A stretch of DNA of 64,000 nucleotides from Macrostomum lignano (lineage: Eukaryota), in contig NIVC01000030.1 in the NCBI GenBank assembly GCA_002269645.1, positions 1 to 64,000 of the forward strand. The letters are read 5' to 3'. This document shows, one piece after another, positions 4,831 to 58,110 of this stretch (position 1 is the first letter of the stretch; the number at the start of each line of letters is the position of its first letter). Below the pieces are notes generated by a model that had not been told where the DNA came from, did no database searches, and was given only the letters and a program-made list of their open reading frames with translations. The position numbers and the translations under genes are program-made.

Positions 4831-5124
4831 CTCTGTTAACAAATGTCTGTCACGTGTTAACTTCAAACAGATTTATTTATTCCTGATTACCTCGTCTGAC
4901 GCTTCTATTAGCCATCACAGCTCGCATTAACTGTCTCATCTGACAGAGTGGATGACCGCGAACCTATCCAGATACAGGGTGAAACAACTTGATGAAGAAT
5001 AAAAACTTACTGATTGAAAAAATGTTTGTTTTATTATATATTCACTTAGCAGAGAATGCTAATATTCAATAACTAGTTGCCCTTTCTTTCATGAACAAAT
5101 TTATTGTTTATTTTAGTGGAGCAG

Positions 5125-5579
5125 AAGGTTTGCTGGACCAGCCTCCTAGATCTTCAATTGCTGGACCAGCCTCCCATAACCCCAGTTGCTGAGCCAGCCT
5201 CCCAGATCCTCATTTGCTGGGCCAGCCTCCCAGATCCTCAGTTTCTTGGCCAGCCTCCCTGATCCTCAGTTGCTGGGTCACCAGCCTCCCAGATCCTCAG
5301 TTGCTGGGCCAGCCTCCCAGATCCTCAGTTGCTTGGCCAGCCTCCCAGATCCTCAGTTGCTGGGCCAGCCTCGCAGATCCTCAGTTGCTGGGCCAGCCTC
5401 CCAGATCCTCAGTTGCTGGGCCAGCCTTTCAGATCCTCAGTTGCTTGGCCAGCCTCCCAGATCCTCAGTTGCTGGGCCAGCCTCGCAGATCCTCAGTTGC
5501 TGGGCCAGCCTCCCAGATCCTCAGTTGCTGGGCCAGCCTTTCAGATCCTCAGTTGCTTGGCCAGCCTCCCAGATCCTCA
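5125..5579. repeat. 28-bp minisatellite (CCTCCCAGATCCTCAGTTGCTGGGCCAG), left part, interrupted by the LTR element
   Basis: Tandem units stop at ...AGATCCTCA|TGATG and resume at 16280. Confidence 0.95.
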
Positions 5580-6650
5580 TGATGTGTTCCTTATTACCAG
5601 TCCTCAACTGTAATCAAGGAACAATCACTTCTAGCTCTGTAGCTAGGCAACCCAGTAATCAAATGAAGGTATTCAATTACCTTTGAGTCCTTAAATGAGA
5701 GCTCTCGTAATAATCCTCGTCCGTAGTATCGCGATCAGTAACTTTCCTGTCCTTCAGGAAGTTTAGGCGCCTGGTAACAGTTGATCTGGTCCGTTATCTC
5801 CTTTGTCCTCTTGACTTCTTGCCGGCCGGTATCTGTAGTTCGGACCAATAAGAAGCTTCCAAATTAACAATGGGACCCTGCGCCAAACTGCGGTTTAATA
5901 TAAGCCTACTCCTTCTAGTAGTGCCTCTATGCACTCTAGGTATGGCTCCGGAAACCACTGATAGTCTTCTAAGATCTATCAGGGGCAGTCCTTCTGGAGA
6001 CTGCAACCAGTGGAGTCTAAACAGACTCAAGAGTCTCAGCAGACTCAAATAAACTCAAGTCTCAATAGACTTGAGCGAGACGTCTCAACCAACGGGCGCA
6101 AATGAGTAAGGCTTACCGCAAGAACTCGTCCACGACGCGAGTTTCTTCAGGAAGGCTTCACTAGAGCTTCCTCTTCGGAGCTTCTCTCCTTGGAGATTTT
6201 GGCTCCGGGTCCGTTCCGGACCACTTGTATTTATAGGCGTTCAGACCTCTCTCGAGGTCGTACATCACTGTCTTCGCAAATGTCAAAGGGTCACGATTCG
6301 GTGGCTGTCAAGCATGACAGGGTAGAAAGTTGCGCAACTAGTCTACTGTAAAAGCGCATGATTGGTTACCGTAGCTGGTAGACTTTGATTGGTTCATCCG
6401 GGTGCAACCCGAGTGCAAACAAAATGATGACTTGAAGGTGGGGTTTGAATTGACAGTTGTTGGTCGCACGTGATTGGGTGATTTCTAAAATTAGCATGCT
6501 CGAGGTCTCTCTCTTCCTATTGGTTAGTCCGAATATACTTATAGTTCAAAGCATACCTTTATTCATGCTCTTCAATTTACTACTAAATAAAATGTGTGAG
6601 TAGTACATTAACACTTTTATGTCTTCTTACGGGAGGTAGAACACTCTACA
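5580..6650 (-). repeat. 3' LTR (1071 bp), sense TGTAGAG...ACATCA
   Basis: By eye matches 15206-16279 except for 3 single-base indels; TATAAATA at 6228-6235 (-); preceded on the sense strand by the purine-rich ATGGGAGATTT (weak PPT candidate). Confidence 0.97.
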
Positions 6651-6868: not shown

Positions 6869-7081
6869 CTAACAATAGGCGCACTGCCGCAAACTACTTC
6901 TACCTATCGGGCAATTCTGCCAGAGCTGAATATAATGTGAGTCGCTTAAATATTGTCCGCATATGCGATGTCTGTTTTCACAAATAATTGGTGGCTTGAC
7001 AGCCAAGTCATCAGTTAAACATATTGGGCATTCGTAGAGTTGCTGTAGTTGGGGCGCCTGTTTGGACAGTGCGTTGCCCAT
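6869..7081 (-). CDS. Small accessory protein: N-myristoylation motif (MGNALSK) plus degenerate C3HC4 RING finger
   Basis: CPIC-x11-CENRH-x2-CGQY...CPIG spacing resembles SINA/SIAH-type RINGs; ligands 6 and 8 are TAT and GGT, each one change from TGT; a further CAYC at the C-terminus. Confidence 0.6.
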   Translation of the reverse strand: MGNALSKQAPQLQQLYECPICLTDDLAVKPPIICENRHRICGQYLSDSHYIQLWQNCPIGRSSLRQCAYC

Positions 7082-7192: not shown

Positions 7193-10100
7193 TTAACGAG
7201 GTCGCAGATTGTAGCCATGTTGCTGGTTCTCGGTTGATGTTTGTGTCTCCTCGTGTTTTGTTGCGATGTGGCGGTTCGCCGAACGCGTGCGATCAGCGTT
7301 GTCTAGTGACGGTAAAAACGTTGTCGTGTCAGTGTTGATCTTCTTTAGTCGATGAATGTGCACGTAGAATTGGTGCTGATGAGGATCTTGCACATTGGCC
7401 AGGCGTGCCGTTGTCGGTGACGTTAGTTGGACCACTCGATATGGTCCTTTGTACTTCTGTGCGTGTTTGTGCGTCTGTTGCGGCGGATAGTGCAGGTAGA
7501 CGATGTCGCCGGCTGTCAGAGTTGTCGATCTCGTGTCGGTGCCGGTGGTTAGAGCCACCTGATTGTCGATGTTGTGCTTGGCTACTTTCCATGCGAGGTG
7601 TAGTTGCGTGACGAACTTTTGAATGGACGTCGGGACTTCCACATATTGCGATGGTAGTAGTTGCTGTGCCAATAGGTTTGGCGGCTGGAAGTCTCGCCCA
7701 AACATTAGAAAGAATGGCGTATTGTCCGTTGATCGATGAATAGCGCTGTTGTAGGCCATTGTTACTGCTTGCAGATAGATGATCCAGTCGTCCGGTTGTT
7801 GATGCGCGAAGTGTGTAATCATCTCGTGTAGGTTGCGGTGAAACCTTTCAACCATGTTCGCCTTCGGATTGTAGGTCGATGTGTAGATCTGCGTGATGTT
7901 GAGGATCTTCACCACTTGCTGAAAGAGTTGAGACGTAAACTGCGATCCATTGTCCGATGTGAGGTTCTTTGGCGTACCGTACTTGCAGATGATGTCGTTG
8001 AAGAAACCCATTGCCACTGTCTGAGCTGTGATGTCCGGTATTGGTATGGCAATAGCAAACTTTGAGAAAATGTCCAAGGCTGTTAGGATGTAGGTGTAGG
8101 CTATGCCATGGAGACAGCTCGGTGGCAGCGGTCCGGTGATGTCGATGCTGAGACAGTCCATAGTTGTTGACTTTGGTATCGATTGTAGCTGTGGTTTTTG
8201 TCGTCGTCCTGTCTTCGATGCTGCGCATGAGTGGCAGTTGTTGCAATACTGCTTGATGTCGCCATGCATGCTTGGCCAAAAGTAGTATTGCTCCACTCTT
8301 GCAATGGTTTTGGCTGCCGACAGGTGTCCAGCGAGTGGGTTGTCGTGCAGCTCGTTGAGAATTGCCTGCCTAAACGAATATGGCATGTAGATTTTAGGTT
8401 TGTTGTCACTCATCCAGTAGAGTCGTGACTTGTTGATTGTTAAATGTTGTCGCTGCTTGCGCAGGAATTTTCGTTCCACGGGGCTGAGCTTGATGTCCTT
8501 GTCGTTGTTTTTAACTGCTATGTAGAAGTTGTCGTGTTCCGTCTCATCCACCAATTCCTTGATGTTAGGGATTGGATGAATGGCGTTGACTTCGTAGGCT
8601 CTTGACAGGGCGTCCGCGGCCTTGTTAGTAATTCCTGGTTTGTAGACGAGCTTGTAGTTGTAGTCCTGGATCTTGAGTGTCATCCTGATGAGTCGGTTGT
8701 TTGTTTGTCCTTTTGTAGTTACGACGTAGGTCAGCGGTGCGTGATCTGTGCGTACTATCGTCTGTAATGGAGATCCATAGATGTAGTAGTGAAACTGTCG
8801 TAGGGCGAACAGAACTCCTAGTAGTTCTCGTTCCGTAGCTGACCATTTTGTCTCATTCGGTTTAAGTGCTCGACTGACGTAGGCTATAGGTCGTTCCTTT
8901 TTGTCTTCAGTTTCCTGTAGTAGGACTGCTCCGAGTCCCGTTCCTGAGGCGTCTGTCTCGATGATGAAGGGTTTGTCGAAGTCCGGATGCTGTAGCAGTG
9001 CGTCTGATGTCAGCTGTCGTTTGATTTCGTCAAAACTTTCTTGTTGCTTTTGTGTCCAATTCTCCTGCTTCCATTTGTCGAACTTGAGCAGGTCGTACAG
9101 CGGCTTTGCTGTCTTCGCGAAGTTGGGTAAGAACTTTCGGAAGTATTGCGCAAGTCCAAGAAATGATTGGACCTTCGTTTTGCTAGTTGGCGTAGGAAAC
9201 TTTTTCACTTTATCCACGTTGTCTGGGTCCGGTGAAATTCCTTTGGCTGTCACCTGATGTCCCAGGTAACGCACGTTGTCTCGGAAGAATTTGCATTTAG
9301 TTGGTTGTAGCTTCAGACCTTGACGTTGTATAAGCGCGAGGGCCTTCTCCGTCGCTTCATAGAGTCGTTCGAAGTCTTCTCCGTAGGCCAAGATGTCGTC
9401 AACATAGTGCAACAGGTTCGTGCATCCTGCAAGCATGTATGCTGTTAGTCGGCTCATCGTTGCTGGGCTGTTGCTGAGTCCCATCGGCGATCGATTGTAC
9501 TCGTATACTTGTCCATTGTAGGTTTTGAAAGCCGTGTACTGTCGTGACTCTTTCTCGATTTCAATTTGCCAAAATCCATGACGTAGATCGAACACTGTGA
9601 ACAATTTTGCCGTGTTGAGCTTTGCTAGTAGTTCGGAGATCTTCGGTAGGCTTTGCTGATCCGTCGGTATGTACTTGTTCAGTAGTCTGAAGTCACATAC
9701 GAGTCGTCTTTCGTTAGTCTCCTTCTTTTGCACCAAGAGACATGGTGATGAGTATGCTGAAATGGCTTTGCTGATGATGCCGTGTTTCAGCATTTTGTCG
9801 ATAATCTCATCGAAGTGCTGTTGCAGATGCTTGGCGATCGGGTACGGTTTGCACTGAATTGGTTCCGTGTGCGGCAGAAGTTTGATTTCCTGTTTGATGT
9901 CCTTGGCTCGTCCGATGTCGTAGTCATGGTGGCAGAAAGCGTCGTTGTACTTCCACAACAGCTGTCGAACTTTCCTCTTTTGCTGTTCCGTAATCGGGCT
10001 GTCATCCAAATTGATCTTCTTTTGAAATTCTTCCTCTGTTAGTCGTGGAGTCGCTTGCTCAATCAGCATAACCGATGCTTGGGTGTTGAGATGACCGATG

Positions 10101-10924
10101 CACATTCCTTGTCGTAGATGAACCGTTTCTGTGTTCGGGTTGAATATTTGTACTGGCAGCTGTTTATCTTTTGCAACCAGTACTAGTGCCGTAGGCATCA
10201 TAATTTGGTGTTTAGCCGTGACTCTTCTGTTTGGGTCGAATATCATTGCTTCCTCCGTTGCGTTAGTTGCCTTTGCCTTTATCCAGCAGGCGCTCTCCGG
10301 TTGGATGATGACATCTTGTTGCAATGTTACTTTTGGTAGTACTCGGATCTGGTTGATCAATGGTTGTTCTACCGAGTCGATCTTGAACGTTTGCTTATTG
10401 AAGTCGAAGGTCAATGGTAGTCGAAGCTGCTTGAACGTGTCGATGCCAACAATAACGTCCTGGTTTGGGAGTCTGTCGATGACGTACGTTGGAACTGTCA
10501 AATGTTTATTAGCGATTCTTAAATCAATGTCGGCTTTTCCCAGAATGTTTAGCGAATGTCCTCCTGCTCCTGCAACTGCGATTGTTGCTGGCCGTAGAGC
10601 AAGTCGTAGCTTGTTGCACAGTTGTTTTGATATAACTGTGATGGAGCTGCCGGAGTCGAGTAGCGCTCGACATGGTAGATTGTTGATTACCACTTGAGCC
10701 ATGGCTTTGCCAATTTCGGCGTGTAGAGTACATACGTAGTTCTCTGGCCATTTTGGGTCTTGCTGTTCTGCTTGATAGTTAGGTGGTTGTATTCTTGGTG
10801 CCGTTGGTGTTGTCGGAATCGATGGATATAGCCGCGTTGCTAGTGTCGGTTGCCCTTGAACCTCACGATGTGCAGTTTCTGTTAGTTCTAAACTGTTGTC
10901 GCCTTCCGTTGTCGTTCTTTGCAT
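7193..10924 (-). CDS. pol: Pol: late-domain linker, aspartic protease, dUTPase-like remnant, RT, RNase H, integrase with GPY/F (frame open from 11233; first ATG after env at 10924)
   Basis: ALLDSGSS; YVDD; FIIETDASG/ERELL/TDH/ADALSR; HHCC (HDNPLAGH..CHSC); D(SIDIT), D(SDNG), E(MVERF); GPYRVV; no stops over 3.7 kb. Confidence 0.97.
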   Translation of the reverse strand: MQRTTTEGDNSLELTETAHREVQGQPTLATRLYPSIPTTPTAPRIQPPNYQAEQQDPKWPENYVCTLHAEIGKAMAQVVINNLPCRALLDSGSSITVISKQLCNKLRLALRPATIAVAGAGGHSLNILGKADIDLRIANKHLTVPTYVIDRLPNQDVIVGIDTFKQLRLPLTFDFNKQTFKIDSVEQPLINQIRVLPKVTLQQDVIIQPESACWIKAKATNATEEAMIFDPNRRVTAKHQIMMPTALVLVAKDKQLPVQIFNPNTETVHLRQGMCIGHLNTQASVMLIEQATPRLTEEEFQKKINLDDSPITEQQKRKVRQLLWKYNDAFCHHDYDIGRAKDIKQEIKLLPHTEPIQCKPYPIAKHLQQHFDEIIDKMLKHGIISKAISAYSSPCLLVQKKETNERRLVCDFRLLNKYIPTDQQSLPKISELLAKLNTAKLFTVFDLRHGFWQIEIEKESRQYTAFKTYNGQVYEYNRSPMGLSNSPATMSRLTAYMLAGCTNLLHYVDDILAYGEDFERLYEATEKALALIQRQGLKLQPTKCKFFRDNVRYLGHQVTAKGISPDPDNVDKVKKFPTPTSKTKVQSFLGLAQYFRKFLPNFAKTAKPLYDLLKFDKWKQENWTQKQQESFDEIKRQLTSDALLQHPDFDKPFIIETDASGTGLGAVLLQETEDKKERPIAYVSRALKPNETKWSATERELLGVLFALRQFHYYIYGSPLQTIVRTDHAPLTYVVTTKGQTNNRLIRMTLKIQDYNYKLVYKPGITNKAADALSRAYEVNAIHPIPNIKELVDETEHDNFYIAVKNNDKDIKLSPVERKFLRKQRQHLTINKSRLYWMSDNKPKIYMPYSFRQAILNELHDNPLAGHLSAAKTIARVEQYYFWPSMHGDIKQYCNNCHSCAASKTGRRQKPQLQSIPKSTTMDCLSIDITGPLPPSCLHGIAYTYILTALDIFSKFAIAIPIPDITAQTVAMGFFNDIICKYGTPKNLTSDNGSQFTSQLFQQVVKILNITQIYTSTYNPKANMVERFHRNLHEMITHFAHQQPDDWIIYLQAVTMAYNSAIHRSTDNTPFFLMFGRDFQPPNLLAQQLLPSQYVEVPTSIQKFVTQLHLAWKVAKHNIDNQVALTTGTDTRSTTLTAGDIVYLHYPPQQTHKHAQKYKGPYRVVQLTSPTTARLANVQDPHQHQFYVHIHRLKKINTDTTTFLPSLDNADRTRSANRHIATKHEETQTSTENQQHGYNLRPR

Positions 10925-10932
10925 TATGGCAT

Positions 10933-12775
10933 TCACTGTCTTCTTAGCTTTGGACAAGTTTGACTGAAGCACCGTACGATCGACGAAATGATGAAGATTG
11001 CCGTGACAATCCACACAATGCAAGCACCGTAGAAGATGAATCCTTGATAGAGACTGCCTCTTCCATTGAGCAGCTCCCAGAAGCTGTTTGTCCAAAATGA
11101 TTTGATGGCGCTGTCCATTGAAACAAGGACGGGAAATCTTCCTGTCCCGGTTCCTTTGTCCTTTCTTGTGAACAGCTGGTGAATCATCTTGCGTTGGGTG
11201 ATGAACGCTTGCAAGAAGTCGTTGATCGTCCATCCTGGTGTTATCTCGTCAAGTTGGATATCGGCGAATGGCGTATACTTCGTTCTGTTGAATCGGATTT
11301 TCAAATCCTCCATGTCGTAGTTTTCGTCGACGATTACTTCCGGTTCTGTGATGTTTGCTGTCGTTCCAGTTGTTTTGATGACGTGTAGTGCATTGTCCAG
11401 TTGATAATAGTTTGCTGCCGTGGTGCAAGGTCTCGGTATTGCGGTGCCAACGATGATGTTGTGTACCGTGTCCAAGAATCCCTGAATTCGTTTTCCTTCG
11501 TAGAACGCTTCAATCCTTGGCTTGTCGTAGCAGGTTGTTGACGTGTTCGACGGCAAGATGTTAAAGTGCTGTATCGGCGTGCACTTGTATATCAACAGAT
11601 GCTCGTATATTGGAACTGCCAAAACGTTCGTCATTCCGGTGATTTTACGAAAAGTCATCGTAGGGTTGACATAGTAGTTTTGTCTGGCATAATTTAAGTT
11701 GATTGCGTGCATTTTGCAAGTTAGCTGGACCAGTGTTCGATGCAAGTGGTTTAACTGGTTGTGTAGATTGTGATCCAAAGCCGTTATCTTTGCTGACAGT
11801 AGTCGGTTTGACACCAGTTTGGGACGTTCGATGTCACGTCGTCGTCTGTTCTGTTGTTCCTGCTGTTGATACGTTCCGTTGATGATCGCCAGAAAGGTTT
11901 GTTTGTCGTCATCTTTTACGTAGACTGGTATCTCTTGTTCCGAGATGAATAGTGTCTTGTCTGTATCCTTGCATTTCAGTTTTTGCTCGACTGGTTTCTT
12001 TTGAAACGTCAGTGCCAAGTCTCCTGACTTTGCCAAAAACGTGTTTGACAGTAGACCTCCTTCAACTGTGTGATACTTTTGAAGCTTGCAGTCAATTTCC
12101 GGCTCAACTTCCCACGCGAAGAAGTATTGTCGTGACTTAGATGGTTCTTCATATCGTGAGTCGCCTCTGCGTATATTTGCCATCGATAGTCTTGATGATA
12201 TGTTGGACTCAACGGTAAGCTGTATAGTTCCTCATTCCGCAGTATCGGCGTTGGACACCATCCTTTGCTGTATCGGCAGTCACTTAATTGCAGTTGTAGC
12301 GACTCCATTTTTTCAAAAGGATTGTGGTAGAATGGAATATTCCTGATTAGGTAACTGTTTCGTGTCATGTAGTTAGTCCATGCTTCCGAAAAGTGTACAT
12401 ATCGTCCGTTTGCTGAGTTCTTCGTTCGGTAAAGTTGTGCCTCCCCCACTTTCTCATCCGGTTCTAGCTGACCATCCTTTGAGAACAGTGTTTGGTTCCA
12501 TTGTAGACATTCAGCGTGCGACACATGTAGTTCGTGTTGCCAAAATCGAATTCTGTTCCATTGTCCTCGCCAAACTTTTTCCACTAGGTGCTTGTCTCTA
12601 AAGCACACTATTCCGAGTTGTCGATGCTTCTTGATGTTAGCTTTGTAGAGATCAATTGTGATCTTCTTTGGCTTCGTCTGATTTGTCTTGAAGTAGCTGC
12701 ATTTGATGTCGGTTGGTATCTTGTAGATCATCGGTTGGATATGCGCATCCGTTGGACATATCATTGGTTTTCCAT
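10933..12775 (-). CDS. env: Envelope glycoprotein, class III (herpes gB/chuvirus G-like) fusogen candidate, ~614 aa, split by a -1 frame step near 12225
   Basis: ORFs 12009-12890 and 10933-12183 join into a Cys-rich ectodomain (PMICPT, DCRYSKGWC, YFFAW, central helix ending LTC, NPT, CTPI, CYDKP, GFLD, RPC). It has several N-x-S/T sequons, a furin-like RRRR site, an aromatic membrane-proximal segment and a C-terminal TM (FIFYGACIVWIVTAIFIISSIV). Confidence 0.8.
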
Positions 12776-14509
12776 TGCTGTTGCTTTGGTGACTACTGCC
12801 GTCAGTAGTATTATGATGATCCAGAATATCCAGAATCGCCATTTTCTGAACGTTGCCGTTGTCTTTGCTGGCATTGGCTGCGGCTGCCATTCGTTATCTT
12901 CTGCGTCCGCATCGTATTCTTCCTCTTGTTCCATTGGCGTTTCCGAGCGCAAGGCATCCGATTCGTTCCGCTGCTTGTCGTCTTCATCATTTTCGTCCTT
13001 GCTTTCTTCCGATGTTGTAGTTTTGTCACTCCATTGTCTGCGGTACCTCACTTCGGCCTTGTAGTCGACCGTTTGAATGTAGGCTTCACCATTTCGTTTA
13101 TATCGGATCTCGTAGCATTGATCGCTGTCGGAGCTTAGATTTCTTTCTTCCATTCCTTTGTGCCTTCCGTCTTCATGTTCTTTGTCGGCGGCTCGGTTGT
13201 CATCAGCGTCATTGTGCATCTCATAATCGTGATCGCTGCTTTCTTCTTGCTGTTCTTCTTCCATCTCTGTATTTCCGTCGTTGCTTCTTTCTTTGTCATC
13301 CTTCGTTGCCAGTTCTTTGTCGTTGCCTTTGTTTGTTTCTTCTTTTCTTTCACTGATGTCGCTTGGCAATGTTTTTTCTGTGCTCACTTCTGTCTTTTCT
13401 TCTTCGCTGTCAATGTTAGTTTCTTTCATTTCGACCATGCTGATGTTTTTTGTCTTTTCGCTGCTCTCCGCATCGAGCCAGTCGATTTCATTGATAGTGA
13501 AGTCCATTTCCAAGTCGTCTATCGTGAAGACTTGCTGCTCTTGCTGTTCGCTTTCCGGTGTGTACGTGATGGCGTTTGCATATCGTTGCATCGCTTGCGT
13601 TGGTTGCTTGGGCATGTATCTGGCGTTTCGCGGTCTGTAGCCATTGTTTCCGAAGCGTTTCGTGTTTTGCTGCTGCCAATTTTGATGTTGTTGCCATGGT
13701 TTTTGCGGCTTCCTTCTGTTGAATGGCTGTCGCTGCATGTCATTTCTTGTTGACCGATGAGGACAATGTATTTGGTAGTGTCCTTCTCGTCCACAGTAAT
13801 AGCATCTGGCTTGGGCTCGTTCATTTCGTCTTTTTTGTTCGGCGATAACGGCTGTTTGATGTTGCATCAATTTGTTTAGTTGCTGTGTCAGTTTCTGCAC
13901 TTCTGTGTTGCCGGTTGTCATTAGTGGAGCGCTTGCTTCCCACTGCATTCCGCACCGTAAAAGGTCTTCCTCGGTTTCAATGTTTTCGCGTAGAAGTCTA
14001 TCTCGGAGTGACGGCTGTGCATTGTTTATTACGTGCAGAATCAGATTTTGTTCGCGATCCATCAATCGCTGTCGCTCTCTAGCGGCTAATTCTGCCGCAC
14101 CCAGAGGTGGTTGGTCTGCAGCTGGCAGTGTTGGCTGATGCAGTGCCTTAATTATCTGACGGATGTCGTCCACAAAGGTCAGGAAGGATTCGGTTGGCTG
14201 CATCCTTCTGTTATGCAACTTGTGCAGTAGCACTGATCTGTTTGTGCCACAGCGGTTGAAATGCGCGCGCAGTTGAATGATTAATGCTGGGTAGTTTTGC
14301 TGTGTTGCCGCATCTAGTTTACCATAAATCTCTCGTGCAGTGCCTTGGAGGAGTGGTGGCAACAGTTGCGCTTTTTCTGGATTTTGTAGGTTGTATTCCC
14401 TACATACCAGGTCAAAATGATCAACAAAGGTGTTAAAGTCTTTTTCCATAGAAAAGGTGCCAACTGTCTCTTTGATATCTCTGTGCACCGTTGGATTGCG
14501 CCGCGCCAT
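12761..14509 (-). CDS. gag: Gag (capsid plus CCHC nucleocapsid), followed by an acidic spacer and an in-frame internal signal/TM helix
   Basis: Retrotransposon gag-like helices (FVDHFDLVC..LLQGTAREIY; MQPTESFLTFVDDIR); zinc knuckle CYYCGREGHYQIHC; C-terminal RKWRFWIFWIIIILLTAVVTKATA. Confidence 0.93.
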   Translation of the reverse strand: MARRNPTVHRDIKETVGTFSMEKDFNTFVDHFDLVCREYNLQNPEKAQLLPPLLQGTAREIYGKLDAATQQNYPALIIQLRAHFNRCGTNRSVLLHKLHNRRMQPTESFLTFVDDIRQIIKALHQPTLPAADQPPLGAAELAARERQRLMDREQNLILHVINNAQPSLRDRLLRENIETEEDLLRCGMQWEASAPLMTTGNTEVQKLTQQLNKLMQHQTAVIAEQKRRNERAQARCYYCGREGHYQIHCPHRSTRNDMQRQPFNRRKPQKPWQQHQNWQQQNTKRFGNNGYRPRNARYMPKQPTQAMQRYANAITYTPESEQQEQQVFTIDDLEMDFTINEIDWLDAESSEKTKNISMVEMKETNIDSEEEKTEVSTEKTLPSDISERKEETNKGNDKELATKDDKERSNDGNTEMEEEQQEESSDHDYEMHNDADDNRAADKEHEDGRHKGMEERNLSSDSDQCYEIRYKRNGEAYIQTVDYKAEVRYRRQWSDKTTTSEESKDENDEDDKQRNESDALRSETPMEQEEEYDADAEDNEWQPQPMPAKTTATFRKWRFWIFWIIIILLTAVVTKATAMENQ

Positions 14510-15185: not shown

Positions 15186-15203
15186 GAGAGGGCGAGATCA
15201 CCA
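15186..15203 (-). promoter_or_regulatory. Putative primer-binding site TGGTGATCTCGCCCTCTC
   Basis: Starts with TGG 2 nt after the terminal CA of the 5' LTR; priming tRNA not identified. Confidence 0.6.
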
Positions 15204-15205
15204 AT

Positions 15206-16279
15206 TGATGTGTTCCTTATTACCAGTCCTCAACTGTAATCAAGGAACAATCACTTCTAGCTCTGTAGCTAGGCAACCCAGTAATCAAATGAAGGTATTC
15301 AATTACCTTTGAGTCCTTAAATGAGAGCTCTCGTAATAATCCTCGTCCGTAGTATCGCGATCAGTAACTTTCCTGTCCTTCAGGAAGTTTAGGCGCCTGG
15401 TAACAGTTGATCTGGTCCGTTATCTCCTTTGTCCTCTTGACTTCTTGCCGGCCGGTATCTGTAGTTCGGACCAATAAGAAGCTTCCAAATTAACAATGGG
15501 TACCCTGCGCCAAACTGCGGTTTAATATAAGCCTACTCCTTCTAGTAGTGCCTCTATGCACTCTAGGTATGGCTCCGGAAACCACTGATAGTCTTCTAAG
15601 ATCTATCAGGGGCAGTCCTTCTGGAGACTGCAACCAGTGGAGTCTAAACAGACTCAAGAGTCTCAGCAGACTCAAATAAACTCAAGTCTCAATAGACTTG
15701 AGCGAGACGTCTCAACCAACGGGCGCAAATGAGTAAGGCTTACCGCAAGAACTCGTCCACGACGCGAGTTTCTTCAGGAAGGCTTCACTAGAGCTTCCTC
15801 TTCGGAGCTTCTCTCCCTTGGAGATTGTTGGCTCCGGGTCCGTTCCGGACCACTTGTATTTATAGGCGTTCAGACCTCTCTCGAGGTCGTACATCACTGT
15901 CTTCGCAAATGTCAAAGGGTCACGATTCGGTGGCTGTCAAGCATGACAGGGTAGAAAGTTGCGCAACTAGTCTACTGTAAAAGCGCATGATTGGTTACCG
16001 TAGCTGGTAGACTTTGATTGGTTCATCCGGGTGCAACCCGAGTGCAAACAAAATGATGACTTGAAGGTGGGGTTTGAATTGACAGTTGTTGGTCGCACGT
16101 GATTGGGTGATTTCTAAAATTAGCATGCTCGAGGTCTCTCTCTTCCTATTGGTTAGTCCGAATATACTTATAGTTCAAAGCATACCTTTATTCATGCTCT
16201 TCAATTTACTACTAAATAAAATGTGTGAGTAGTACATTAACACTTTTATGTCTTCTTACGGGAGGTAGAACACTCTACA
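15206..16279 (-). repeat. 5' LTR (1074 bp)
   Basis: Direct repeat of 5580-6650; TATAAATA at 15857-15864 (-); ATTAAA at 15521-15526 (-). Confidence 0.97.
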
Positions 16280-16437
16280 CTCAGTTGCTGGGCCAGCCTC
16301 GCAGATCCTCAGTTGCTGGGCCAGCCTCCCAGATCCTCAGTTGCTGGGCCAGCCTCCCAGATCCCCAGTTGCTGGGCCAGCCTCCCAGATCCTCAGTTGC
16401 TGGGTCACCAGCCTCCCAGATCTCCAGTTGCTGGGCC
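16280..16437. repeat. 28-bp minisatellite, right part
   Basis: Continuation of the 5125-5579 array after the TSD. Confidence 0.93.
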
Positions 16438-16468
16438 ACCTTTTCAAATTCTCGGGCTCTGCACTAAC

Positions 16469-17789: not shown

Positions 17790-20700
17790 GCCTGCAAACG
17801 TCGGAGAGAACCGGGTTTGGCCCGACGTGAGTGAGCCTGGCCCTGGTTGAAAACCTAGCAGTAATAAAGTGCTCGATTTTCACTGCCTGAGCGGCAGAAG
17901 GGGCACCGCTCCTCGGGTACTTGGCCCTGAAGGAAGCGGTGGCGAGAGAAGCAGCCATGCCCGGAGAGGGCCATGCTACCTGCTCTGAGGTCTCTGCGGT
18001 TGAGCCTGAGGAGGGCTCTACGCAGGAGAGGAGAGGGGCAGGGGACGGCCGCACGGGATTGCCTACAATTCCGGGTGTCGTGCCACCTGCGGAGATGCTC
18101 GGAGTCAGTCCAGCGCTTAACGCGGGAGTTGATCACCGAGGCGGGGATGGGGGCTCCCGGGCCCGGCCCCAGCAGCGCGCCGGCGGAGCCAGCCTTGGCC
18201 AGCAGGTCAGCGCGCTTGTTGCCGAGGAAGCCGGCGTGGCCCGGGATCCATCTGAGCTCCACCTGGTTGCCTAGCGCAAGCCCGCGTTGAGCTGGGTGTT
18301 GAAGTCCAGGACGGACCTGGAGCTGGTGGTGCAGCGGTAGAGGGCTCGAAGGGCTGCTTGGCTGTCAGAGTGAAAAATAAATTTCCGACCGCTGAGCTGC
18401 CTTCGGCGCAGCTCTGCCGCGCAGGAGCTGATGGCAAAGCACCTCGCTCTGAAAAACACTGGAGTTAAGCCCAGTGTGCAAGGAGAAGCTCCACACCACG
18501 TCTCCCTTGAAGAAGACGCAAGCTCCGAAGCCTGAAAGACCATGCCTCATAGAGCCGTCAGTGTAACAGTGGACTTCAGAATCGCTCGCGCTGTCGCTCG
18601 CTTCGTGTCGAGGCTGAATAGTGACATTATACCTTTGGCTCAGGAGAAGGGCGGCTGGGATCGAGTCCATGAGGATGTTGAGCCCGCCACACTCCTCGAG
18701 AGCCTTGAGCCAGAGGTCAGAGTGCGGGATAAGCGACCGCTTCTTAAAGGCCCGCACTTTCTTGAAGGCCACCCCAGCATCTAGAAGACGCCGGGTGCTC
18801 TTCGCCGCCTCTCCTTTGATAAAAATATCCAGAGGAGGGGCACAGAGGAAGGCATTCATGCCTTCAAAAGGAGTAGAGGGTGGAGCGCTCATAGACATGC
18901 GGCAAGCTCTGCCCTGGGTTTTGTAAAGAGCGTCGAGGTTGCTCTTGACGCTCAGGCCGCTGGCCCACACGAGGCTGGCGTAACTGATCGAGGGGCGGTT
19001 GATGGCAGTGTAAATCCACCACAGCTTCCTGGGGGTGAGCCCCCAGGTGGTGCCCACGGCGCGCCTGATCTGAGCCAGGACAGCCAGGGATTTTTTAGTT
19101 TTAAGTTCAGTCCAGTTAAGCCTGAGTCCAGTTAAGCCTGAGTGAGGCCCAGGCAGCGGACCTGCTTCTCCATTGAAATATCCTTCTCATAGAGGGTGAG
19201 GGGCCTAATTGTCCAGAGCAATTTGTTGGTAAACATGACAGCTCTGGTTTTCGACTCTGAGAGTCTAAGGCCAAATTGGTTTGCCCAACGCTCCGCTCGT
19301 CCCAGAAAGCCCTGCAGAGGATCTCTAATGGTATCAACCGAGGGGCCCGCGCATATCGCGGTCACATCATCGTCATAGCCCACCTTGAGAATGGGGTCGT
19401 GGAGATCACTGCAAAGCAGCTCATCCAGGACCATGTTCCAGAGAACGGGGGTGAGAACTCCGCCCTGGGGGCCCCCTTTCTGGACAGGCGCCGAAAGAGA
19501 GCTGGCGTTAAGGTGGGCCACTACAGTGCGATTTCGGATCATGAACATGATCCACCGGACAAGGTGAGGGTGCGGAGCCCTGGATTCCAGGGCTCTGCAA
19601 AAAGCCTCGAAGATGACGTTGTCGAAGGCCCCCTCAATGTCCAGGAATAGCGAGAGGGCAAAACCGCTGCCAAGAACGGCCCTCTCCAGGAAGTCAACAA
19701 TGACATGGAGGGCACTCTCGGTAGACCTGCCCGCGCGGAAGGCGTGCTGGTTCTGCAAGAGTGGGAAGCGCTCCAGCTCGACTGAAAGTAGGCGCCAAAG
19801 CACCAGTCTCTCGAGGAGCTTAAGGCAGAAAGAGGTGAGGCTGATAGGCCTGAAGGCCTTCACCGATTGGTAGTCGCTCTTTCCAGGCTTGGGGATAAAG
19901 ACCACCCGGGCCTTCCTCCACGCAACTGGTACATAGCCCAGCTCCACACAAGCTCGAAGGAGACGACAGAGCAGGTCCAGGAAGAGGTGGTTTTTCACCG
20001 CCTCGTGCAAGAACGCTGGGTAGATGCCGTCGGGCCCAGGCGCCTTGAACGGGTTAAAGGACCTTGCCGCTCTAATAATGCGGTCTTTGTTGATCATAGA
20101 CTTGGTTAGGCCTTGCCCTCCCACGGTGTGGTCAGGCGGGCCCTGCTGAGTCGGAGATTTAGGGAAGAAACTGTTGAGCATTAACTCTAGAGTCTCTTTA
20201 GAGCTCTCTGTGACCGAGCCATCAAGTCTCTTCACAACAGAGAGTTTAGAAAAACGGTCATTCGTGAGTGCCTTAACCACGCGGGCTACGGGGCGAGAGC
20301 CCAATTGGTGCCGATTGGCCGTCTTGGCCCTTCTGACTTGGCCCTTAAACTTGTGGATCGCACGGGTATAGGCCTCTATATCAGATGGGTCTTTGGTTTT
20401 GAGCGCTCGCCTTTGGAGGGTCCTGGCTCGGCGCCGAAGGGCCCCGAGCTCTGGGTTCCACCAGGGAGCAGATTTCTTGCCTTTATAGGCCTTTAGAGGT
20501 GTAGAGAAAATACTAACGATTGAAATATGAGATATTTAAATTAGAGTTAAATTGAATCTAAGATAAGCCAGTACGAGCTAAGTGGGCGCAGGGCCCAAAC
20601 AAGTATATTTAAATGACCAATTTAGAGGGGGGTTGACTCCAGATAATAAGGAGAGGGGTGAAGTGCGCGACTGAAGAGAGAGGCGAGAATGGAGAGCCAA

Positions 20701-54396: not shown

Positions 54397-57300
54397 ATGA
54401 AGCTTCGCTGCAAACTACAAGGCGGACCCACCAGTCCTCCTGGTGGCGGTGCTCAAACGGTTGAACTGTCCGATAATGCTACTCTAAGTAGTCTGATTAG
54501 CGCAGTGGCAGCCGAATATGGCGTAGCTGCCGATTCTATTCAATTGAGCCAGAATGGCCGAGACCCATTGTCAGCTCCTGCTGACTCCACGCCTGACAGT
54601 ACTAGTGTCAGGAGTTTGGGTTTAGTGCCCGGCGATCTTATCTACGTGCGCTCCTCTTCTGGTACTACAGTTTCTGGTAAGTTGGCCGGCCGATATGTAT
54701 GTATTTGTTATTGTTTTATTTCTTTAAACTACTGAAGGTGTCAAGTCAGTAGTCGTCATGGATATTTTTATTAGCAAGTATGCACTTTCATCAGTTGCTC
54801 TAGAAGATGACTGACTGATACGTATCGAAGTACTGTTTTTATATAATATCCGATATGTATCGAAAAAAATTGTTTTTTACGTTACGATATGCATCGAAGA
54901 AAATGTTTTTTAAACTATTCCATATGTATCGGAAAAAAATTCATGCTATCCGATATGTATCGAAAAACTGTTTTTTTAAATATCCGATATGTATCCAAAA
55001 ACTATTTTTTAAATATCCGATATGTATCGAAAAAAGAGTTTTTCATGCTCTCCGATATGTATCAACAAACTGTCCTTATGCTATTTGATATTTGATATGT
55101 TTCAAAAACCTGTTTATCTTCGCCGATATGTATCTGAACGAGACTGTTATTATATTATCCGATATGTATTGAAGGACAGTTATTATACTAACCGATATGT
55201 ATCGAAATTAAACTTTGCACTCTATTATTTAAAGCCACAACAGGTGCACAGCCGTCACCAAGTAACTCAGCCAAATCAACTGCGCCAACTTCTAGCAAGA
55301 GTACGCCAACAGACTCAGCAGCCGCTGTACCAATTTTAGTCGGAGAAGTGCCCAATCGTTCTGTTCAGTTGTGCCCGTCGCTGCACTTGATGCAAAGATT
55401 GTACACCAACACTACTAATAGCGGGGCTACTACTATAAGTAGCCAATTGCTTCGATTCACTCTAGCCGCCCACTGTCTCATGGTGGAGACAGGATTCTTG
55501 TCTATTGACCCGGCAACTGGTCAGACTCATCAAGATTTGCTCTCTTCAGGATTCGAACCCGCGGGCCCAGAATCCGCTGCTGCCGCTAACCGAGTACTGA
55601 CTCGGTATCTTCTGCCGGCCGAGTTTACTAACCATGAATCTTCGACCACTGCTGAACCTGTCTCCTACTCTATCCAATATATTTATCATTTAACCAGACA
55701 GAGCGAATTTGGATCGGCTGCTCCTAGAATTCTACTGAAAGTAGTGCGAACTGGTCAGTTAGTATTGTGTCATTGCGCTGTTTGGCAATCGGCTGTTGTT
55801 AGTCCTGATAGTGGCAGCGAGGAGAGGCCGACTGAAACTCTGTGTTGTCACTCGTGGCACTGCAGCCTGGACCGATTCGTGCCCAGTCGGTCGTCTAGCG
55901 GTACTGGATACGAAAATTTGAAACAACTATCTGCGTTGTTTAAAGACGCTGTGAGTTTGTTCGATGTTTTTTGCTGTAGGTTAAATGCTGAGTTGGAACT
56001 AGAAGCTAGCGATATGTATTGAAACATCTTCTGGCAGGCTACTAAACAATTCAGCCGATATATATATCGAAATAATCATTATTTAGCTACAAATATCTTA
56101 TTAAAATATTACAGCCGATATGTATCGAAATTTGTATAAGTAAGCAGCTTATAGCCTATTAAAATACTACAGTGGATATATATATCGAAATATTCATTAG
56201 TTAGCTACTACTAGTAATAGTCTTTTTAAAATACTACAGCCGATATGTATCGAAATATTCATTACTTAGCTCCTAATAGCCTATTAAAGATACTACAGCC
56301 GATATGCATTGAAATATTCATTAGTTTGCTACTGATAGCCTATAAAAATATTACAGCCGATATGTATCGAAATATTTATAAGTTAGCAGCTTAAAGACTA
56401 TTAAAATGCTACTGTGGATGTATATCAAATTATTTATTATTAGCCACTAATAGCCTTTTTAAAATGCTGTAGCCGATATGTATCGAAATCGTAATTAGTT
56501 TGCTGCTGGTAGCCTATTAAAAGTATTACAGCCGATATGTATCGAAGTATTTATTAGTTAGCAGCTTATATCCCATTAAAAATACTACAGCCGATATGTA
56601 TCGAAATATTCATTAGTTTGCTGCTGGTAGCCTATCAAAAGTCAGCCGATATGTATCGAAGTATTTATTAGTTAGCAGCTTATATCCCATTAAAATGCTG
56701 CTGTGGATATATTAAAATATTTATATGGTTAGCCACTAATATGCTTTTTAAAATACTAGAGCCGATATGTATCGAAATATTCATTAGTTTGCTACTGGTA
56801 GCCTATTAAAAATATTGCAGCCGATATGTATCGAAAAAGCGTTTCCCTTTAGAATTCATCAGTGAGTCTCAGCACAATACGCACTTAAATTAAAACTGCA
56901 TACTTTTACTTTATTAAGTAGTATAATTCGCGCATCAATTTTTCTAGATAGCCGAACGAGCCAAGTCGGCCATACACGAAGCCTGCGGCCTGCCGCTCCG
57001 AGGCCTGACCGGCCTGCCTACAGAGCTGGTGCTGCGGATCATGCGCTACTGCCACGGGCCTCGCGCTGTCTGCTCGCTGGGAGAGGCTTGCCGCCGTCTG
57101 CAACTGCTGCACTCTGACAACTATGTGTGGCGGCCTATGCTGGTTAGGGACTATGGCACCGGCTCTGAGAGGGTTGCTCAGTACCTGCAGGCCGAACGGC
57201 AGGTGAGCTTGCTTGGGTAAGGGTGCCGGGCCAGCCTCCCAGATCCTCAGTTGCTGGGCCAGCCTCCCAGATCCTCAGTTGCCGGGCAAGCCTCCCATAT

Positions 57301-58110
57301 CCTCAGTTGCCGGGCCAGCCTCCCATAGTGTCAGTTGCTGGGCCAAACTCATAGATCCTCAGTTGCTGGGCCAGCCTCCCAGAGTGTCAGTTGCTAGGCC
57401 AGCCTCACAGATCCTCAGTTGCTGGGCCAAACTCCCAGATCCTCAGTTGCTGGGCCAGCATCCCAGAGTGTCAGTTGCTGGGCCAACCTCCCAGATTGTC
57501 AGTTGCTGGGCCAGCCTCCCAGATCCTCAGTTGCTGGGCCAGCCTCACAGATCCTCAGTTGCCGGGCCAGTCTCAAATTCCCATTTCGAGCAGTCCCAAA
57601 TCCTAATTTTGAGCAGTTCCTAATCCCCATTGTGAGCAGTCCCAAATCCCCATTTTGAGCAGTCCCAAATCTTCATTTTGAGCAGTCCCCAAATCCTCAT
57701 TTCAAGCAGTACAAAATCCCCATTTTGAGTAGTCCGAAACCTCCATTTTGAGCAGTCCTAAATCCCTGTTTTGAGCAGTCCCAAATCGCCATTTTGAGCA
57801 GTTCTGAATCCCCATTTTGAACAATCCCAAATCCCCCTCTGCCACCCTGCAGGGCCTGGAGGTGAACTACTATGAAGCCTATCGAGTATTTCACGAGGAG
57901 CGAGTCAAGCGTCGGCGAATGCTGGCAAGGCTAAGCAGCCGTGAGCTCGCCCCGTTAGCGCCGCCGGCTCCATGGCTGGATCTGCCGGGCGTGCTGCCTC
58001 CTCTAATCGGGTTGAATCCATTTCAGGCCCCGTTGATGCTGCAACCGGAAATCCCAGAATTGCCGTTCATACCCAGGCAGCACTTTCCGCCGCCTGCGGG
58101 TGAAGATTGA
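54397..58110 (+). CDS. FBXO7: F-box protein 7-like (Ubl, FP/PI31 domain, F-box, Pro-rich tail); exons 54397-54676, 55235-55950, 56948-57202, 57853-58110
   Basis: MKLR..SLGLVPGDLIYV (Ubl); AAHCLMVETGF..LKQLSALFKD (FP); GLTGLPTELVLRIM..WRPMLVRDY (F-box); Pro-rich C-terminus; phases compatible. Confidence 0.85.
56050..56835. repeat. Intronic ~60-bp AT-rich tandem repeat with a CCGATATGTATCGAAA core (core also at 54850-55205)
   Basis: Core recurs in two introns of the same gene. Confidence 0.85.
57225..57570. repeat. 28-bp minisatellite, same family as 5125-5579
   Basis: Same consensus, more diverged. Confidence 0.92.

Follow-up and report, generated by a model that had tools for sequence, protein, structure and literature searches.

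Across invertebrates, Ty3/gypsy elements have been reported to carry envelope genes of the herpes gB type (Chary and Hayashi 2026, PMC13524379). The same paper reports the order GAG-ENV-POL in nematodes, bryozoans and flatworms, with ectodomains flanked by two transmembrane segments, and cites nematode non-canonical endogenous retroviruses in which env precedes pol. Its table lists one Macrostomum element, gB-type, with 16 copies and a 12-nt primer-binding site that recurs unchanged in the element described here; this listed element, Platyhelminthes_Rhabditophora_Mlig_errantivirus_2, does not appear among the representatives classed there by cysteine bridges.

BEL/Pao elements with a gB/chuvirus-like env carry the same glycoprotein class, as illustrated by the relative P0047, a Pao-type polyprotein with env at its end. 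In BEL/Pao elements env follows integrase at the C-terminus, whereas the element described here has a gypsy-type pol with env ahead of it. A 2022 study by Sacco et al. is said to describe nematode retroviruses with a continuous gag-env-pro-pol ORF, a nyamivirus/chuvirus-like glycoprotein and extra small ORFs; those hosts are nematodes and ours is a flatworm, but env precedes pol in both. The element under study lies in a window of 64,000 nucleotides of Macrostomum lignano DNA (contig NIVC01000030.1, positions 1 to 64,000).

Comparison with described elements and fusogens

The window element resembles Mlig_errantivirus_2 (PMC13524379) in its gypsy pol, gB env, gene order, multicopy state and two flanking hydrophobic segments, and the species of the published element is the one named for a 97%-identical UniRef protein. 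The LTRs of the published element measure ∼864 nt, as opposed to 1,074 in the window. Compared by description and by the 12-nt primer-binding site rather than by sequence, the window family is very probably that of Mlig_errantivirus_2 or a sister subfamily, and is thus very probably already listed in the table of PMC13524379. It shows the combination by which HSV/gB-type GAG-ENV-POL errantiviruses are recognized there, namely a gypsy pol with a gB env, the gag-env-pol order and intact copies in multiple. The preliminary description had treated gB-type env as mainly a BEL/Pao trait and its presence in gypsy as a surprise; Ty3/gypsy cases with this gene order had already been published (PMC13524379), and the finding as first claimed is known in kind, not novel. 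What is added here is the fused, double-membrane-spanning polyprotein for this family and a cassette of double-RING genes: the terms ‘polyprotein’, ‘fused’, ‘single ORF’ and ‘myristoyl’ do not occur in the main text of PMC13524379, in which RING genes were not found mentioned either.

Among class III fusogens, herpes gB, nyamivirus G, rhabdovirus G, thogotovirus Gp and baculovirus GP64 are alike to the window env in domain order, fold, aromatic loops, central helix and furin-type site. Unlike these proteins, to which it is 10-14% identical, the window env is shorter and sits inside a retroelement polyprotein, and the element contains no gH/gL-like partner gene.

Organization of the element in the window

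The element is encoded on the minus strand in the order gag, env, protease, RT, RNase H, integrase. Its features, listed from the 5′ end of the element, are as follows.

15206..16279, minus strand: 5′ LTR, 1,074 nt, TG...CA, 0 substitutions and 3 gap positions relative to the 3′ LTR
15192..15203, minus strand: primer-binding site, 12 nt identical to those listed for the published flatworm element
13763..14509, minus strand: gag, capsid-like region from the first Met plus one CCHC knuckle (13763-13804)
12843..13590, minus strand: acidic low-complexity linker in the gag frame, 30% Asp+Glu across 248 codons
12776..12841, minus strand: membrane segment 1, putative internal signal peptide in the gag frame, basic residues upstream and A-x-A at its end
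12170..12767, minus strand: N-terminal piece of the env ectodomain, comprising gB domain I and the beginning of domain II; approximate at its lower bound owing to the break
12750-12767, minus strand: env motif PMICPT
12555..12575, minus strand: putative fusion loop 1, VWRGQWN, forming in the model the tip of a long beta hairpin (strands 51-70, 73-83)
12369..12401, minus strand: putative fusion loop 2, an aromatic Y/H/F/W/Y stretch that precedes the second long strand in the model
12255-12281, minus strand: env motif DCRYSKGWC
11044..12170, minus strand: env ectodomain, C-terminal piece, PH-like domain II through domain IV; upper bound approximate (break)
12112-12126, minus strand: env motif YFFAW
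11836-11847, minus strand: furin-type site RRRR, within the env C-terminal piece
11680-11805, minus strand: central helix, within the env C-terminal piece
11656-11667, minus strand: env motif NPT
11518-11532, minus strand: env motif CYDKP
11068-11100, minus strand: membrane-proximal aromatic region, within the env C-terminal piece
10975..11043, minus strand: membrane segment 2 (env anchor), with cysteines and basic residues after it
7193..10950, minus strand: cytosolic tail and pol (protease, RT, RNase H, integrase) in Ty3/gypsy order
10646-10663, minus strand: aspartic protease motif LLDSGS, within pol
6869..7081, minus strand: remnant of the first double-RING accessory gene, 70 codons, MGNALS start
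5580..6650, minus strand: 3′ LTR, 1,071 nt, with a short purine-rich tract ahead of it
5576..5579, plus strand: target-site duplication, 4 nt (CTCA), second copy at 16280-16283, within a 28-nt tandem repeat

The TG...CA LTRs, primer-binding site, target-site duplication, PR-RT-RH-IN order and Ty3-like RT place the element in Ty3/gypsy (Metaviridae), and the best solved relative of its pol is Ty3 Gag-Pol (E 3e-95). A BEL/Pao identity was rejected: neither Peptidase_A17 nor DUF5641 is found among the 13 Pfam matches on pol, and env precedes pol. The CCHC knuckle of gag yields a weak zf-CCHC match (Pfam, E 0.07); the position of the gag region, together with the Ty3_capsid or Retrotrans_gag matches of relatives, leads us to infer a capsid there. 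The element is very young, because its LTRs differ by no substitution, its target-site duplication is intact and the 40 scored copies of its env region (out of 93 candidates) are 92-100% identical; the genome thus contains 40 or more copies of that region.

The 28-nt tandem repeat broken by the element (5110-5579, 16280-16450) reappears 41 kb on, at 57119-57697, and the window is rich in further minisatellites. A broken non-LTR retrotransposon occupies 17855-20535 on the minus strand, recognized by eye from motifs, with RT-like and RNase H-like frames and a G+C content of ∼58%. Elsewhere in the genome assembly, two contigs (G000:C669 and G000:C2447) each hold two element copies, ∼10.8 kb and 9.7 kb apart respectively, in like orientation and tandem-looking.

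Reading frame of gag, env and pol

All env motifs named in the preliminary description are present on the minus strand of 10933..12775, with AWTNY lying within 12369-12401, together with six sequons (NQT twice, NGT, NTS, NIT and NRT). In the window these motifs are split over two frames (12893-12009 and 12231-10933), the N-terminal hydrophobic segment lies in a third, the gag frame, and the copy is broken near 12,770, 12,170 and 10,950. The stop at 10933, initially read as the end of env, is there because the third break shifts the frame; it was rejected as a natural env end, as the env C-terminal half continues in-frame into protease in 15 of the 20 longer copies. Nor does env follow pol or form a separate third ORF: it is found between gag and pol, within the single gag-env-pol frame of the family. 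Contigs assembled from four public short-read runs disagree with the window at all three breaks: in 4/4 runs at the env-pol border, in 3/4 at the mid-env break (the fourth run has no depth there) and in 4/4 after the signal segment, where in two runs only part of the depth disagrees. Because short reads pool all copies, assembly error and private mutation are indistinguishable for these breaks, and either may account for them.

The 20 longer copies were hand-picked, not drawn at random, from 40 matches across the identity range and include open-looking ones. Three have no stop between gag and integrase; counted from the first Met, two of these encode 2,439 aa and the third 2,447. In 11 the frame is open from gag into env. 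The other 17 are each broken somewhere, at sites that differ between copies. Two copies of a sister family are likewise single frames of 2,479 and 2,480 aa. Translation of copy L031 gives 14 stops. One UniRef entry, annotated as a retrovirus-related polyprotein of Macrostomum lignano and 97% identical across 35% of the ectodomain, joins the env C-terminal half and pol in one chain. Among 54 relatives in a representative library, a CCHC knuckle precedes the env match in 20 and a protease motif follows it in 16 (shuffled rates 0.04% and 0.5%, respectively); 11 show both, one of which is this family itself.

The polyprotein contains only two hydrophobic regions, at ∼aa 561-579 and 1154-1183, with basic residues on their outer flanks. 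Between them lie five or six sequons and twelve cysteines, the latter at identical places in the three open copies. At the level of DNA, gag, env and pol are shown to share one frame in this family, which very likely yields a single polyprotein. Contigs of three runs, whose RNA type is guessed, span all 30 bins with no joint inside gag-env-pol among the rows listed, a result that is not firm on expression or splicing. Some relatives show other arrangements: P0006 has a NADAR domain ahead of env, P0004 has ∼220 extra residues at the furin region and P0016 has protease domains upstream of env.

Fold of the env ectodomain

The env C-terminal half of the window matches Pfam PF24664 (Monjiviricetes fusion protein) with E 9.7e-6 and 24.3 bits, against a family cut-off of 27. 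This score is itself under the cut-off, as Pfam scores of the env are throughout; the env motifs are nonetheless beyond chance, and the profile and fold searches are decisive. For a profile built from 53 sequences, the 25 best PDB matches are all herpes gB, with E from 2.8e-18 to 1.1e-5, and cover the central helix and domain IV. The fold was modelled with AlphaFold on copy L021, an uninterrupted natural sister ectodomain (pLDDT 77.5, pTM 0.65). In Foldseek the best matches of this model are again all herpes gB (E 1.4e-21), with a TM of ∼0.43 and an rmsd >12 Å, since domain angles differ. VIA-align places HSV-1 gB at Z 11.4 (rmsd 9.4, 406 aligned) and PRV gB domain IV at Z 11.1 (rmsd 3.6, 163 aligned), followed by Chandipura G (rhabdovirus) at 6.0, Bourbon Gp (thogotovirus) at 5.4 and PH domains at <5. 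Single-sequence searches recover far less: the window's env C-terminal piece finds 0 PDB matches and 0 of 1,744 candidates, the uninterrupted ectodomain finds 1 of 2,093 among longer proteins, and the ESM Atlas lead reaches 0.89 at best (a PF24664 cluster), a low recognition.

Structurally, the L021 model shows the five-domain class III architecture, with PH-like domains I and II, a long central helix and a beta-rich domain IV. The fusion loops appear bipartite and aromatic: loop 1 forms the tip of a hairpin and loop 2 precedes the second long strand, as placed in the model without residue-level superposition on gB. Both loops vary between copies, and their aromatic positions are retained while neighbours change. 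RRRR falls in a low-confidence loop preceding the 47-residue central helix of the model, and the furin sites of gB are located before the central helix. Peptides of the HSV-1 fusion loops resemble both aromatic loops of the env (PMC3285657, Table 1).

Going by profile and model, the fold of the env is almost certainly class III and herpes-gB-like. This agrees with the preliminary assignment to class III as opposed to the F-type, and the structural match to class III fusogens on which that assignment was made to depend is present. A class I, F-type env of the baculovirus F or Drosophila errantivirus kind was rejected: a polar stretch and the central helix follow RRRR, and the fold is positively class III. 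No F-type protein occurs among the profile-search, Foldseek or VIA-align matches. Of the original wording ‘gB/chuvirus-type’, the gB part holds and the chuvirus part is too specific: among predicted viral structures the top matches are a nyamivirus glycoprotein (E 1.5e-23), a rhabdo-like one and herpes gB, and chu-like proteins rank lower at 1e-16.

Selection and recombination

Pairwise comparison of natural copies gives a median dN/dS of 0.10 (range 0.04-0.15) for the env ectodomain, from 86 informative pairs (pS >0.05) out of 120, with 16 of 21 copies open and only stretches open in both members used; these values amount to few independent contrasts, because the pairs share ancestry. The corresponding ratios are 0.03 for gag, 0.39 for the linker and 0.04-0.05 for pol. 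The env is under purifying selection, and the ratio near 1 that the preliminary description had named as speaking against its reading is absent.

Between copies L021 and L032, dS is 0.05 in the linker, 0.47 in the env N-terminal half, 0.04 in the env C-terminal half and 0.26 in PR-RT. Such sharp differences along the element for one pair point to recombination between subfamilies, and the fusion-loop half of env has apparently been swapped between them. Copies L021, L029 and L032 are mosaics in which dS peaks in gag and the env N-terminal half and is lowest in the env C-terminal half.

Alternative explanations

The window and several other copies shift frame near domain borders, as would be seen if gag, env and pol were distinct frames linked by programmed frameshifts and the single frames were secondary or assembly artefacts. 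However, the break places differ from copy to copy, short-read contigs of four runs contradict the window at its breaks, and sister families as well as distant relatives are single frames; programmed frameshifting is thereby largely refuted and is the least credible of the alternatives. Scarcely more credible is a recent capture of the glycoprotein by this lineage from a chuvirus or a similar RNA virus. PF24664 is indeed the best family match, and the viral fold search is headed by glycoproteins of nyamivirus and rhabdo-like type, but identity to any viral protein is only 9-15% and the sequence relatives of the env are other retroelement proteins of the same layout. The preliminary description had proposed capture by this gypsy lineage; relatives at 21-30% identity already share the layout, and an ancient acquisition is argued for in PMC13524379.

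An env of class III without any role in infection deserves more weight, although it too is unlikely. Here the protein would be retained for its use as a trimeric, membrane-anchoring scaffold in intracellular retrotransposon assembly and protease activation. Env sits mid-frame in the sole reading frame, so that pol forces the frame to stay open, and constraint on env is weaker than on gag or pol. An open frame does not call for a dN/dS as low as that of env, however, and the linker in the same frame stands at 0.39. The cysteines are fixed in the three open copies, and the loops keep their aromatic residues while neighbours change, which also argues against a mere scaffold.

Double-RING accessory genes

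In members of this clade, the region separating pol from the 3′ LTR contains two or three double-RING genes that are paralogues of one another. In the window only a 70-codon ORF remains after the pol stop; it has lost ligands and the second RING, and ∼1.1 kb of the cassette is missing relative to copy L043, which encodes two genes of 222 and 212 aa (L043:808-2166). Further arrays are found at L051:7949-9805 and L055:1359-3491 and in L053 and L058; sister families have two or three genes. In this family, many copies have a first gene cut to 70 or 124 codons, and others one of 222. Each gene encodes a pair of C3HC4 clusters together with a helical part in which a WP motif is conserved (alignment A2). 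The full-length genes show RING-HC (C3HC4) ligand spacing and a RING fold: at E ≤ 0.01, 12 of the 16 members match Pfam Sina_RING, the gene profile finds the RINGs of SIAH1 (E 1.1e-5) and TRIM21, and the protein model (pLDDT 90) gives generic RING matches at Z ∼5. The 222-aa protein retrieves 0 homologues among 38 candidates, the viral fold search gives nothing for it at E ≤ 0.001, and its ESM Atlas lead reaches 0.86 at best (giant-virus SAP/RING clusters).

With dN/dS of 0.14-0.30 in six of seven pairs (the seventh is saturated), the double-RING genes are under purifying selection, and an integrase match accompanies them in 15 of the 26 loci fetched around them. That the proteins act as ubiquitin ligases is somewhat more likely than not. 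An MG start is limited to the first gene of this family and does not occur in sister families; its MGNAxS sequence is what we take to be a myristoylation-type motif, matrix-protein-like. Four contigs of the assembly (G000 contigs C2121, C87, C1130 and C3033) hold several diverged RING-gene copies within tens of kilobases each, and may represent nests made up of element fragments, for example piRNA clusters.

Arenavirus Z, ICP0 and baculovirus IE-0 likewise place a small RING-HC protein beside a viral genome. Unlike arenavirus Z and other viral E3s, the cassette combines two RINGs with a helical domain and forms arrays of two or three paralogues; homology to arenavirus Z was rejected, as that protein matches at Z 3.7, no higher than RINGs in general. 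Bdelloid LTR elements carry extra ORF3 genes, and the whole word ‘RING’ is absent from the available text of that report (PMC5408684). Neither this env nor these RING genes were found described in the available texts of PMC5408684, PMC4604429 and PMC12801592, and no description of RING accessory genes in such elements was found in the literature covered, a weak absence given that most subscription journals lay outside its scope.

Proposed mechanism

Taken together, the env is probably part of a very young Ty3/gypsy gB-type gag-env-pol element that encodes one membrane-spanning polyprotein with a fusogenic env. The polyprotein would run from Gag through the acidic linker, membrane segment 1, the class III ectodomain and membrane segment 2 to protease, RT, RNase H and integrase. 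Segment 1 would act as an internal signal directing the ectodomain into the ER, and segment 2 would stop transfer, so that Gag and Pol would both be cytosolic and membrane-tethered. We infer that signal peptidase cuts after segment 1, which would free the env N-terminus; furin would cleave at RRRR, and the env would trimerise. Particles carrying the tethered Gag and Pol would bud at the membrane, and the viral protease would then free the capsid and enzymes. The two aromatic loops would enter the target membrane and drive fusion, allowing the element to pass between worm cells, and the 3′ double-RING genes would supply ubiquitin-ligase-like accessory proteins. These processing steps follow signal-anchor topology and class III protein biology in general. 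A spliced or internally started RNA may be an alternative.

Present-day infectivity of the family is somewhat more likely than not. A more elaborate scenario is offered tentatively and is rather doubtful: an active endogenous virus in which Gag, env and Pol are fixed at 1:1:1 and env trimers position capsid and protease, and whose RING array serves as anti-restriction ligases (for example against the piRNA pathway) or as a Z-like budding factor, one of them newly myristoylated.

Implications

Equimolar Gag and Pol are unusual in particle builders, and the fused layout poses the puzzle of how a particle is built from Gag and Pol that are both membrane-tethered and equimolar. The double-RING cassette, if a true set of anti-host ligases, would represent a class of retroelement accessory genes of which no description was found. 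For most elements of this kind the route of env-mediated transmission is unknown (PMC13524379), and for the flatworm host both RNAi and transgenesis have been published (PMC4604429, PMC12801592). A young, many-copy family with open frames in a tractable flatworm would make the question of env transmission observable in a living animal.
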